From the NCBI GenBank assembly GCA_964036045.1, contig OZ038378.1, positions 182,094,001 through 182,158,000 on the forward strand: a DNA stretch of 64,000 nucleotides, read 5' to 3'. The stretch comes from Eutreptiella sp. 'Long Island Sound 2002'. Lineage: Eukaryota; Protista; Euglenida. Shown here one piece after another: positions 52,874 to 57,100 of this stretch; position 1 is the stretch's first letter; every line of letters begins with the position of its first letter. A program made the position numbers and the translations under genes. Below the pieces are notes generated by a model, which had not been told where the DNA came from, made no database searches, and saw only the letters and a list, made by a program, of their open reading frames with translations.

Positions 52874-54160
52874 ATGGCACCAAAGGCACGAACTACACAA
52901 GGCCAAAGGAAATATTGCGCAATTCACAAGAGTTTGGGCAACCATACCACTAGCGAATGCAAAGGGATCAAAAAGACCGATGACGCCGATAAACGTTGCT
53001 ACCTTTGCAACGCAACGGGACACACAATGACCACGTGCCCGCGCCGGAAAGATGCTATCGACACGGATGACGATGGGAAGTATGTTGCATCGAAACAATG
53101 CTGGAACGGGTGTGGCGGGAATCACTTGGTTTCGGATTGCAAAGAGCCGTTATGCATTAAGGTAATCCGCATGAATGAAAAGGCTTATTTCGAGAGCAAG
53201 GCGGATGGAAGAGATTTTCTACCGATTCGCCGGGAACAAGTGATGGGCGGCAACACAACGGCGACCCCGACACCACGAGCATCGCCGGCGACCCCGGCGC
53301 CAACGCCGTCAATTCCCGTTGAATTCATGACGTTGGATGTGAGGGCGTCATGCTCATGGGACGGCGAAAAAATTGGCGATTTATTGAAAGAGCTTGCTAC
53401 GACGCCGGATGTGAACATCGCGCAGGAAAATGGTGTTGAAACGCTTGCGTTGTCCTTCTCTTCAGAACATGAATTGGTTGCGGCGCAACACACCATTGGG
53501 AAGCAACAAGACGGCAACGGAGAGCATTTCATCGTGCGGAGAAGGCACACACCGTCTACACCATGCCCTGCTGGAGCTACATCGTCGTCAACACCAAGTA
53601 CCCAAGGCGGCGAGGCGCCATGGGCAGCGGACATCAATGCCATGAGAACAGACCACAAAAAGTTGGAACGCAAAGTGAATGTCATGGGCAATCGCATCAA
53701 CAAGTTGAGCGATGAGACCGACCGTACGCAATCCTTCATGCTGGAATTTGCAGAATTTTCGGGTATGACAAATGCACGTGCGGTTATGGCGAAATGTGGG
53801 AAGCAAGATAAGTCAAAAGAGGATGGCGCCAAAGATCCTACACCGACGGACGTCGAGGAAGATGACATGGAAGTGGACAAGCACCGAAAAACCGGAAAGC
53901 GCTCAACGGGTGAGAAGAGCGTGGAGTCCACGTGTGATGCAACAACACAACACGCGTGGGCCGTTGTAAAATTGGGGAACCGCCACCATGTCATGCATGT
54001 GGAGCATGTGAGGACGGAAGAACGGGGCAACGAGACGCACTACCTGGTCAGGTACGAGAATGAGGAGGCGTCCATGGAACATTGGGTTCGAACCAAGGAT
54101 TTGTTCAACACCGAGCCGGATGCCGAAGCCGCCGCTGAAGAGCGGTCGGCAAAACGCTAA
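52874..54160 (+). CDS. ORF1, gag-like nucleic-acid-binding protein (428 aa from ATG 52874; open frame extends to 52613)
   Basis: Zn motifs CAIHKSLGNHTTSEC (52916-52960), CYLCNATGHTMTTC (canonical CX2CX4HX4C, 52997-53038), CWNGCGGNHLVSDC (53099-53140); coiled-coil-like INAMRTDHKKLERKVNVMGNRINKL; C-terminal chromo/Tudor-like segment. Confidence 0.85.
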   Translation: MAPKARTTQGQRKYCAIHKSLGNHTTSECKGIKKTDDADKRCYLCNATGHTMTTCPRRKDAIDTDDDGKYVASKQCWNGCGGNHLVSDCKEPLCIKVIRMNEKAYFESKADGRDFLPIRREQVMGGNTTATPTPRASPATPAPTPSIPVEFMTLDVRASCSWDGEKIGDLLKELATTPDVNIAQENGVETLALSFSSEHELVAAQHTIGKQQDGNGEHFIVRRRHTPSTPCPAGATSSSTPSTQGGEAPWAADINAMRTDHKKLERKVNVMGNRINKLSDETDRTQSFMLEFAEFSGMTNARAVMAKCGKQDKSKEDGAKDPTPTDVEEDDMEVDKHRKTGKRSTGEKSVESTCDATTQHAWAVVKLGNRHHVMHVEHVRTEERGNETHYLVRYENEEASMEHWVRTKDLFNTEPDAEAAAEERSAKR

Positions 54161-57100
54161 ATGGTCCAAACGAGACAGCAGCGCCGGGCAACCACAACAC
54201 AAGTGGTACCTGGCGCACCGGCGGGGGTGCCAAGCACGCCGCGAAGGAGCCACCGAATTGCGCAACGCCAAAAATCCGATGCAACACCGATATATAACAA
54301 GCCAAATCATCCGAGTACTAATGACGATGCCGCCTCCATAATGGGCTCGGCGTGGAACTTGCGTCCACGCCAACACGTAAACTATGCCGAGTATGAATGC
54401 ACTGAGGAGGAATCGGAGGATGCCATGATCCGACCCACGACAGAGGAACTACCGGTGGACCGACGCCGGAACCCAAGGCGCATGTGCCGCAGTGCGGCAC
54501 GCCGCCGAGATCCCACCAGGGATCCGGAGCACCGGGCCATGGTGAACCATGTGCGGGCAAGAGCCAAGGACGCACGGGAACGACGGCACGGTCGAAGGCT
54601 GCGGGCGCGGGCAGAAATGCAAGCACCGGCACAAGACGACGGGGATGGGATTGATGCTGCATGGCGGGACATTACTGCATACTGGAAGACGTTCCGACTA
54701 CCGAAATCGAAGCGACGACTCCGCTGGATGACAGCAGGGGAAGCGCCGGAAGTAGGTATGGCACTGCCACCATTGCGCCTGACGAATGCCGAGTTCATCG
54801 ACGCCATGGGGGCGCGCCAAGAGGCCATTGACTCGCAGTGCCGCGCTATCCGGCAAGCAATGGAAGCCGGGCATTACGGGAACGCCGGGACGACGCACAT
54901 GTTTGACTTGCAGCAACGGCACGAGCCGATTCATGACGGGGCGAAGGAACTGAAGCGCATGATCGAGAGGTCGGCGACGCTGCGCTCCTTGTGGCGCCGC
55001 TACACCGAGCACTACGGCATATTCGTGTGGCAGGAAGTCACGGATGAACGTGGGAACCATTTCCTACAACATTGCCGCCGATGGGCACAGCATTTAGAGA
55101 GTACAAAGGGTACGGGTGCTTGGTGCCCGTCGTATGCATGGCGCGGATGGGCCGAAGACGTACTGGGCCAGGTGGACATGTGGGTTGGGGGAGTGCCGAT
55201 GACGGACTGGCACGTACCCGTAGCGACCACAGACGTTTCCTACTCGCCGTTCGCGACACCCGTGACGGCGATTTTGTCCGACAAACAGGACGAGGTCTCG
55301 CTGGTGTGGACAGTGCAGCCGGACGACAACCGGCAGACGTGGGGCGCGTTGCAGACAGCCGTGGAGACACGTGGGCTGCCCACCAGGGTGCTGATCGGGT
55401 ACCCGAAAGAGCGTCAAGCACTGGCAAACGACATCATGCGGGATTGTGGGAATTCGTGGCGCATGTGGGTCGCGTACCAAGGCGACTCCCCGACATGCAA
55501 GTCCCAGGACATGTACATCGACAAGCGCAGACGCTGCCATAGTACGACGGTGACAATACAATGGGTGGTATGCGAGTGGAGACCAGATGGGCTGCAGCCC
55601 ATTAACCTGCACAAGTATGTCCAGGGGCTGTCCAATATCTGCAAGCGGGGACGGGGTGCCTGGCGCCTGCCGCCAGGGACAAACCTGGGAGACAAAGAAC
55701 TTCGCCGACGCCGTCACGCTGAGACGCTGGATGCCCTGCAGACTGAACGAGCGCAGCTGCTCCGAGGCGGGAAGGACCTACAGGCCATGGCAGACAACAT
55801 GGAGAAAACCTGGAAGGTCCTGCAGAGCTCCGAACGCCGCTGGGTAAAACGGGTACTGGGCCATAGCAAAATTCCGGAACCCAGCTGGATGGAGTATGGC
55901 ACGTGGGTGTACGTAATCTTGAGCATCACTGACGGCACTGTGTACGTAGGGGAAACAGGGGGAAAGGGGGAGACACGTCGCATCATGGACAGATTCTGGG
56001 AACACGTGACGGCTGCACGCAGCTTGATGAGCGGGGCCTACAAGGCAGACCCCACGTGGAAGCGATGGCAGCGGGCCATGGGGTCGTCAGGCCTCGAGTC
56101 CTGGGTCATAATACCCGTGGAGAGGGTGACGGCGGGAACACGCCTCATCCGCGAACGCAGCTGGATACGCCGGATGGGGAAGACATACAACTGCAAACGT
56201 ACATGGGGGAAAGGCAGGGCCCAGGCACTGGGCCAACGGGCGCTGCGAGATGAAGGCCCGGGAAATATGGATGACCTCGCTGCCCAGGCCGAGAAAGTGG
56301 CGCACGCCCTGCGGGTGCCGGAGTCGGCAGCGCAACTGGTGCGCCTGCTTTTGGCCTGCCGCAAACGGGTGCCGAAGGATGTGGAGTCGAAGCTCTACCA
56401 AAAGGTGAAGGGCGTCATACGCCAACGCTTGGGCATCCATCTGCCACGCGTGTTGGCAGTTCCGATACCGACAGGGAAGGATGTGAACATGCAGCCAACG
56501 ATGGACGCCCTGCAGACCATCCTGACGGAATATGCAGCTCCCAAATGGCTGCATAGATACCTGGCGGCGGTGATACGACCAGTGGGAAAACGGGGCAAGA
56601 AGGTGAAAGATGTGCTCGCGCCGACAACGCTCCGGGGCAGCATGGAAGAGGCGCTGGCGAAGGCGGAGGCAGCCTGCACCTGTGCGCACCGCCCCGCGGG
56701 AGTGCCACGAATGCATGGGTGCTGCATCGCGAGGAACCCAGCGCACCTTCGTCTGCTCTTCGGCGATCACGCGCCTGTACTGATGCAAAATCTGGATAAT
56801 ACCACGGCGGCAGACTGGGGCACTGCCACAGAAACTGTCGACCGATTTGCTAAGCAATTATCCCGATCCTTCCCCCGAGGGACGGGACCTTCCCAGCGTG
56901 TGGTCGCTGAGTCTGTCAAACTGACCTTGAGGCCTGAATTTCACAAACTGGAAGGGTCAGTACCCCATCACCTGACGATGAAAGCACTGAAAAAATTTCG
57001 AAAAGCCTTTCCACACTGGAAAATCACCCCGCTAGATAAAAATGGGGGGCGGGCAATTGCGATGTGCGGAAAACTGTACTGGTCCAAAACCATTGAAGCA

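Follow-up and report, generated by a model that had tools for sequence, protein, structure and literature searches.

How is the second protein of a retroelement made when its open reading frame (ORF) continues in the frame of the first, parted from it by a stop codon and an adjoining ATG? The question is raised by a two-ORF, Chlamys-like Penelope retroelement on the forward strand of a 64,000-nucleotide (nt) stretch of DNA from Eutreptiella sp. 'Long Island Sound 2002' (assembly GCA_964036045.1, contig OZ038378.1, positions 182,094,001 to 182,158,000; hereafter the window, to which all coordinates refer). On balance, our analysis points to termination-reinitiation at a conserved zero-spacer stop-start junction as the probable source of the ORF2 product.

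A stop codon in direct contact with a start codon

The features that define the junction are as follows.

52736..52873, + strand: leader before ORF1, lacking an ATG; another subfamily carries an indel form of it (joint 52801-52863)
52874..54160, + strand: ORF1, 428 amino acids (aa), with three zinc-knuckle-like motifs, a predicted ferredoxin/RRM-like domain, a long helix, and a C-terminal beta domain
54158..54163, + strand: TAA-ATG junction, the ORF1 stop followed at once by the in-frame ORF2 start
54161..58465, + strand: ORF2, 1434 aa, stop TGA, with a ~570-aa N-terminal extension, a GIY-YIG endonuclease, a CxC motif, and a Penelope-type reverse transcriptase (RT)

The junction codons read AAA CGC TAA ATG GTC CAA, in which TAA occupies 54158-54160 and ATG 54161-54163. 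The letters of the window thus bear out the first-pass annotation, which had reported CGC TAA ATG GTC at 54155-54166 in a frame common to both ORFs, and the fusion of ~1860 aa that it had envisaged computes as 1863 codons. ORF1 begins at an ATG in strong context (GCC-ATG-G), and the ORF2 ATG carries a weak T at -3. The hexamer TAAATG is common in the window, occurring 11 times on the forward strand and 9 times on the reverse strand, and the background chance of a Met directly after a stop is ~3% (57 Met in 1862 codons). What places this junction beyond chance is its position between ORF1 and ORF2, the two longest stop-free frames in the 64-kb window; the hexamer itself is ordinary.

Retention of the stop and ATG in related copies

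A protein search with ORF1 returned 3 clusters with 8 members. Five of these relatives, which belong to two further subfamilies, end in the same last five residues as the ORF1 described here, three of them at 85 to 87% identity and two at 73 to 75%, whereas the remaining three leave the frame earlier (two shift just before the end and one diverges sooner). None of the eight, at 73 to 87% identity, reads on into ORF2 in frame. These comparisons show that this copy did not acquire the stop as a nonsense mutation of its own.

We also compared the DNA with 23 contig records from four public runs (two samples and two organism labels), 14 of which span all six junction bases. Variants apparently entered the table only if they lay 31 bases or more inside an aligned piece; all rows comply with this, and A54208G, found in another comparison, is missing from the table. 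Under this rule, 7 of the 14 records display TAAATG without change: four are free of any difference, and three have the junction well inside the aligned piece. Two more, which share a 30-nt overlap with a difference-free record, probably keep it as well. The unchanged junction extends to a type that carries 14 differences over 112 nt (87.5% identity) and to contigs of the second organism label. A reading by hand placed nine of the 11 nearby variants in the table at third positions of codons in this frame, and found none of the seven that precede the stop to alter the protein. Also by hand, the diverged type was seen to keep the ORF2 frame in its loose end, together with a short basic motif at codons 27 to 30. 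The first-pass annotation had named a sense codon or free spacing in most other copies as the outcome that would speak against a functional junction; instead, none of the 14 covering records shows a changed junction or an indel, and no resolved record has TGA, TAG, or a sense codon at the stop. That the stop stays put across related copies supports a regulated junction.

On the ORF2 side, none of 167 relatives (the best 150 of 657 matches at E 0.001 plus 17 cluster members) has a knuckle or a match to the ORF1 profile, and a weak search of 6751 longer candidates for extended ORF1 forms found no fusion. Three full-length distant ORF2 relatives (27 to 30% identity) have 578 to 723 residues before the endonuclease, compared with 570 here. 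We set aside the ORF2 starts chosen by gene callers in relatives (Met 61, 89, 127, and 190) because the same callers begin ORF1 at an internal Met 52. One exact 205-nt piece of ORF2 in an estuary RNA run (X6) was left unused on account of its small share and possible DNA origin. Scans of metagenomes and of viral and prokaryote genomes found no related DNA loci.

Routes to the ORF2 product

The first-pass annotation had proposed either reinitiation or readthrough at this junction. The idea of a regulated junction stands, whereas the two mechanisms do not fare equally and the evidence favors reinitiation. In this mechanism, one bicistronic RNA would be translated from the strong ORF1 ATG, ribosomes would terminate at UAA, and a small share of 40S subunits would remain on the RNA and restart at the adjoining AUG. 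The RNA-binding ORF1 product would then be abundant and the endonuclease-RT, as a protein of its own, scarce, as in elements of the long interspersed nuclear element (LINE) type. The ATG is kept in every resolved contig record, and readthrough would need no ATG. Coupling to termination is favored over a separate RNA by the zero spacer, by the T at -3 of the ORF2 ATG, and by the lack of a pyrimidine-rich acceptor. The distance of 0 nt from stop to ATG also lies inside the ~20-nt range for reinitiation given in reviews (PMC10275272, PMC5972666).

A structure downstream of the stop may assist reinitiation, as downstream structure does in SART1.

54181..54216, + strand: predicted hairpin, a weakly supported candidate coupling signal, beginning 20 nt past the stop (z -2.6; 3 of 200 shuffles)

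The A54208G change in other contigs would give this hairpin one more pair. RNA structures predicted more strongly than the junction hairpin, and the strongest in the element, lie at 54440-54590, 53270-53359, and 56840-56929 (z -3.2 to -3.5). A pattern scan found no 2A motif.

Several points weigh against reinitiation. The mechanism is deduced from sequence, with contigs only as the evidence from public runs, and 5 of the 14 covering records have no readable junction state. The invariant stretch, 54152-54171, is only 20 nt long, and diverged types are few. A low-depth type (records 4 and 11), which may be a dead copy, seems from a loose end read by hand to meet a stop in frame past codon 10. 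The downstream hairpin reached z -3.8 in one window but ranks only 8th among 204 windows of the element on a different grid. Another candidate signal, an upstream hairpin at 54128-54150, was rejected because synonymous variants disrupt its stem. The UGGGA motif of a TURBS (a ribosome-binding site upstream of termination) is absent upstream of the stop (53900-54300 examined). Trans-splicing in euglenids offers another route to an ORF2 mRNA. Finally, two Chara families with a knuckle ORF1 have no in-frame ATG at their junctions, pointing to fusion proteins (by eye, Craig 2021 supplement). As to the missing motif, SART1, victoriviruses, and hypoviruses reinitiate through signals other than UGGGA (PMC10275272, PMC5972666), so its absence lowers only the TURBS label.

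The route through a separate mRNA was overlooked in the first-pass annotation, which had considered two routes. Here ORF2 would be translated from its own monocistronic RNA, arising by spliced-leader trans-splicing, by cis-splicing, or from an internal promoter late in ORF1, with the ATG as its first AUG and the zero spacer reflecting compaction. The conserved ATG and a free-standing ORF2 fit such an RNA equally well. Euglenozoans trans-splice their mRNAs, and the related family P0186 is named from the euglenid Eutreptiella gymnastica. Introns and internal promoters also occur in Penelope-like elements (PMC8557442). We nevertheless consider a separate mRNA rather unlikely: the exact, conserved contact of stop and start is not predicted by it, the context of the ORF2 ATG is weak at -3, and the seven AGs in the last 100 nt before this ATG are poor in pyrimidines (at most 10 pyrimidines and at most 5 T in the preceding 20 nt), unlike the acceptor of a host exon in the window. 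Still less is to be said for an internal ribosome entry site (IRES)-like element in the end of ORF1 that would initiate ORF2 without any need for termination. An IRES would suit a bicistronic RNA whose ATG is conserved, as well as the modest predicted structure at 54100-54245 (z -2.8), but it gives no reason for the stop-start contact, the seven synonymous variants upstream of the stop include some that disrupt a predicted stem, and Rfam has no match; we regard it as very improbable.

The fusion route has more in its favor. The shared frame, the codon-shaped variation on either side of the stop, and the downstream hairpin suit low-frequency UAA readthrough into an 1863-aa ORF1-ORF2 fusion, with the Met after the stop incidental or a relic. 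Chlamys-5_cBra of Chara braunii seems to need readthrough, as a TGA ends its knuckle ORF1 and the endonuclease frame runs on with no in-frame Met until past the endonuclease, and ORF2 of Chlamys-2_cBra lies in the +1 frame without an ATG (both by eye); the authors give each family as a single long sequence beginning with ORF1. These junctions, read by eye from consensus sequences with protein rows to 400 characters and no script check, suggest that the Chara relatives make fusion proteins, and so readthrough stays alive. For the element studied here we find it unlikely. Its stop is UAA rather than the leaky UAG or UGA, no fused protein appeared among the ORF2 relatives or the longer candidates, and readthrough leaves the conserved ATG unexplained. 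Through the +4 effect, a UAA with A as its next base leaks less than any other stop. Of the readthrough codons UAA is consistently the weakest, the four virus genera covered in a review do not use it, and the hairpin begins 20 nt past the stop compared with 8 nt for the pseudoknot of Moloney murine leukemia virus (PMC13517186). An older single ORF broken by a nonsense mutation, or a host code in which TAA is read as an amino acid, would agree with most Penelope-like elements having a single ORF (PMC8557442) and with a frame that stays open for 1960 codons when TAA is taken as sense. This explanation is largely refuted and scarcely credible: the same C terminus occurs across three subfamilies, the two pseudo-long terminal repeats (pseudo-LTRs) show no difference, and neither ORF is otherwise broken. 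The two ORFs together hold 1 TAA against 74 CAA/CAG codons, and a code with TAA as Gln is therefore unlikely.

Identity, ends, and age of the element

The element is bounded by two pseudo-LTRs.

52549..52735, + strand: 5' pseudo-LTR, 187 nt, identical at 187/187 positions to the 3' end of the element, with ends TG..AT and not TG..CA
58568..58754, + strand: 3' pseudo-LTR, where the end of the element adjoins host repeat DNA, without a target-site duplication

Contigs from the public runs connect the left flank straight to the right flank (joint 52528-58754 plus loose ends) and represent the empty site, so the insertion spans approximately 52549-58754, in a host repeat and without target duplication. 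The surrounding repeat is itself of high copy number (52400-52548 and 58755-58970), and a 10-nt tandem duplicate is present in the left flank at 52519-52538. The identity of the pseudo-LTRs and the intact ORFs indicate a recent insertion, and the element is multi-copy, young, and intact.

By its sequence features, the element is a Chlamys-like Penelope retroelement. We found the set described as diagnostic in PMC8557442, namely an N-terminal GIY-YIG endonuclease before the RT (with R, H, E, and N), CxC, the DK motif, IFD-like spacing, and pseudo-LTRs. Chlamys is separated from Naiad by the endonuclease, whose residues 582-677 here hold no Cys and so neither CCHH nor CX2-5CxxC fingers. An LTR retrotransposon with a gammaretroviral gag-pol was rejected in view of the TG..AT ends, the lack of target duplication, the RT motif FRDN, the endonuclease preceding the RT, and a pattern scan of the element in which neither a protease nor an integrase motif appeared. 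Among relatives, only P0186 is named, at 24 to 35% identity.

The pseudo-LTRs contain a heptamer resembling a hammerhead core, CUGAAGA, at 52691 and 58710. Rfam gave no hammerhead match to E 1 and no hammerhead fold was predicted; the heptamer may be a relic. Contigs of the second organism label (run X5) differ from the element over 56609-58532 by 1 base per 555 to 733 nt, for which a close relative, a mixed sample, and a recent transfer are possible readings. In run X1, contigs at a depth of 38 join 53207 to 53984 via 25 other letters and skip 54170-54353, possibly representing a multi-copy deletion derivative that lacks the middle of ORF1 and aligns up to the junction.

Predicted proteins

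Full-length searches of Pfam, PHROGs, and PDB sequences were nonsignificant, and the domain assignments below rest on motifs, subthreshold Pfam scores of fragments, and the Atlas. ORF1 encodes the following.

52916..53140, + strand: zinc-knuckle-like motifs found by pattern search, residues 15-29, 42-55 (canonical CCHC spacing), and 76-89
53318..53554, + strand: predicted beta-alpha-beta-beta-alpha-beta domain, RRM- or ACT-like, residues 149-227, with a predicted local distance difference test (pLDDT) score in the 60s
53954..54109, + strand: predicted beta-barrel, possibly Tudor/PWWP/chromo-like, residues 361-412, pLDDT 73-82

Knuckle profiles scored weakly (Pfam zf-CCHC E 0.05, below the cutoff; retroviral NC knuckles E 0.16 to 0.73). 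The ORF1 model is of low confidence overall (mean pLDDT 47.2), a Foldseek search with it returned nothing at E 0.001, and ORF1 had no usable match in the Atlas. The model of residues 149-227 aligned to the TRMT2A RRM with Z 8.9 and a root-mean-square deviation of 2.6 over 76 residues, tied with ACT domains (Z 9.7 and 9.0). For the beta-barrel, a single weak Foldseek row, the PWWP domain of NSD2 at E 0.03, serves as a lead only. Given the knuckle motifs and predicted domains, the ORF1 product is likely RNA-binding, in the manner of LINE ORF1 proteins.

For ORF2, we assigned the following.

55904..56191, + strand: GIY-YIG endonuclease, residues 582-677, motif at 582-597, with R, H, E, and N and without CCHH
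56675..56683, + strand: CxC motif of the Naiad/Chlamys type, C839-T-C841, with CxC also present in relatives
57035..57982, + strand: RT core, with DK motif at 959 (DKN), RT3 at 1127-1133, long, IFD-like RT3-RT4 spacing, and RT5 FRDN at 1272

The GIY-YIG Pfam score on an ORF2 fragment was E 0.0036, below the cutoff, and the neighbor clusters of ORF2 in the Atlas carry GIY-YIG (25 to 38%) together with RVT_1. From D1128 in RT3 to G1225 in RT4 there are 97 aa, compared with ~63 in a Hydra protein (by-eye count, Craig 2021 supplement). RT motif 5 (57974-57985) reads FRDN instead of YxDD, and all 15 aligned sequences share its R, D, and N. The ~570 residues ahead of the endonuclease (54161-55870) matched no Pfam or PHROG family; residues ~260-570 are common to relatives at 24 to 30% identity and, on this comparison, constitute an undescribed conserved domain of the clade. 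An AlphaFold model of the endonuclease-RT part had a mean pLDDT of 32.5, too poor for a fold search.

Other features of the window

Outside the element, the window contains short host exons on the reverse strand at 46938-47126 (a piece of an MFS transporter with canonical AG/GT ends) and 30819-31172 (a piece of glycosyltransferase 25). Three near-identical copies of a ~1.2-kb unit (99 to 100% over 300 nt), with no Rfam or Pfam match, occupy 18459-21156. Dispersed repeats of 49 to 50 nt, direct and inverted, lie at 8511-8793, 11588-11816, and 39625-40883 and resemble a non-autonomous transposon family.

Significance

Penelope-like elements are the retroelements nearest telomerase. Two-ORF Chlamys elements are already known (PMC8557442), as is stop-start coupling in SART1 and viruses (PMC10275272, PMC5972666). 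The literature reached (titles and abstract openings, with subscription journals largely missing) contained nothing on stop-start coupling in Penelope-like elements, on UAAAUG as the natural junction of a retroelement, or on euglenid Penelope-like elements, and did not address how the few two-ORF Penelope-like families produce their RT. We tentatively propose that a euglenid Penelope-like lineage makes its endonuclease-RT by reinitiation at a natural in-frame UAA-AUG, which would be the first case found among Penelope-like elements and among Euglenozoa. On that view, one and the same junction would have passed between readthrough, frameshifting, and reinitiation within the two-ORF Chlamys elements.

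Changes to six bases in a young, intact, multi-copy element would cleanly separate three mechanisms. Should reinitiation hold, translational coupling would reach a new class of retroelements and a lineage whose mRNA processing is unusual; should readthrough hold, the junction would be a rare instance in nature of readthrough at UAA. With this element, the range of Chlamys-like elements grows by a lineage that Craig 2021 (PMC8557442) does not list.

Comparison with known systems

The first-pass annotation had viewed the two ORFs through retroviral gag-pol. Gammaretroviruses do resemble the element in having a knuckle protein and an RT in one frame with a single stop between them (PMC13517186), but the pseudo-LTRs and a GIY-YIG domain before the RT mark the element as Penelope-like. 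The mechanistic parallel also fails, as gammaretroviral readthrough uses UAG with a pseudoknot after an 8-nt spacer (PMC13517186), whereas the element has UAA followed by ATG, no protease or integrase motif, and ends other than TG..CA.

The closest architecture is that of Chlamys-2_cBra as well as Chlamys-5_cBra from Chara braunii (Craig et al. 2021, PMC8557442), which share with the element a knuckle ORF1 followed by GIY-YIG without CCHH, CxC, DK, an RT of IFD length, and pseudo-LTRs; the RT3 (EMFxRL) and RT4 motifs also resemble those of the Chara elements by eye. The element differs in its extra ~570-aa N-terminal region of ORF2, in RT5 FRDN, in the lack of a detected hammerhead ribozyme, and in its host, a euglenid lineage outside those that PMC8557442 lists. 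The junctions differ too, being TAA-ATG in frame here and without an in-frame ATG in Chara (TGA in Chlamys-5_cBra and a +1 overlap in Chlamys-2_cBra; by eye). These two Chara sites are candidate recoding sites that the available text of PMC8557442 does not discuss.

The parallel with SART1 drawn in the first-pass annotation holds for the contact between the ORF1 stop and the ORF2 start and for downstream structure, which is required in SART1 and predicted here (PMC10275272, PMC5972666). It does not extend to geometry: the SART1 junction is an overlapping, out-of-frame UAAUG, so readthrough is excluded there, whereas UAA and AUG are consecutive in-frame codons here, in a different retroelement class. 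The natural junction of the hypovirus CHV1, a fungal RNA virus, is likewise UAAUG and depends on upstream viral sequence, to which we found no equivalent signal upstream of the junction here (PMC2699510). When the CHV1 junction was engineered to UAAAUG, the exact geometry of the element, ~70% of reporter output was kept and the virus was viable (Guo et al. 2009, PMC2699510).

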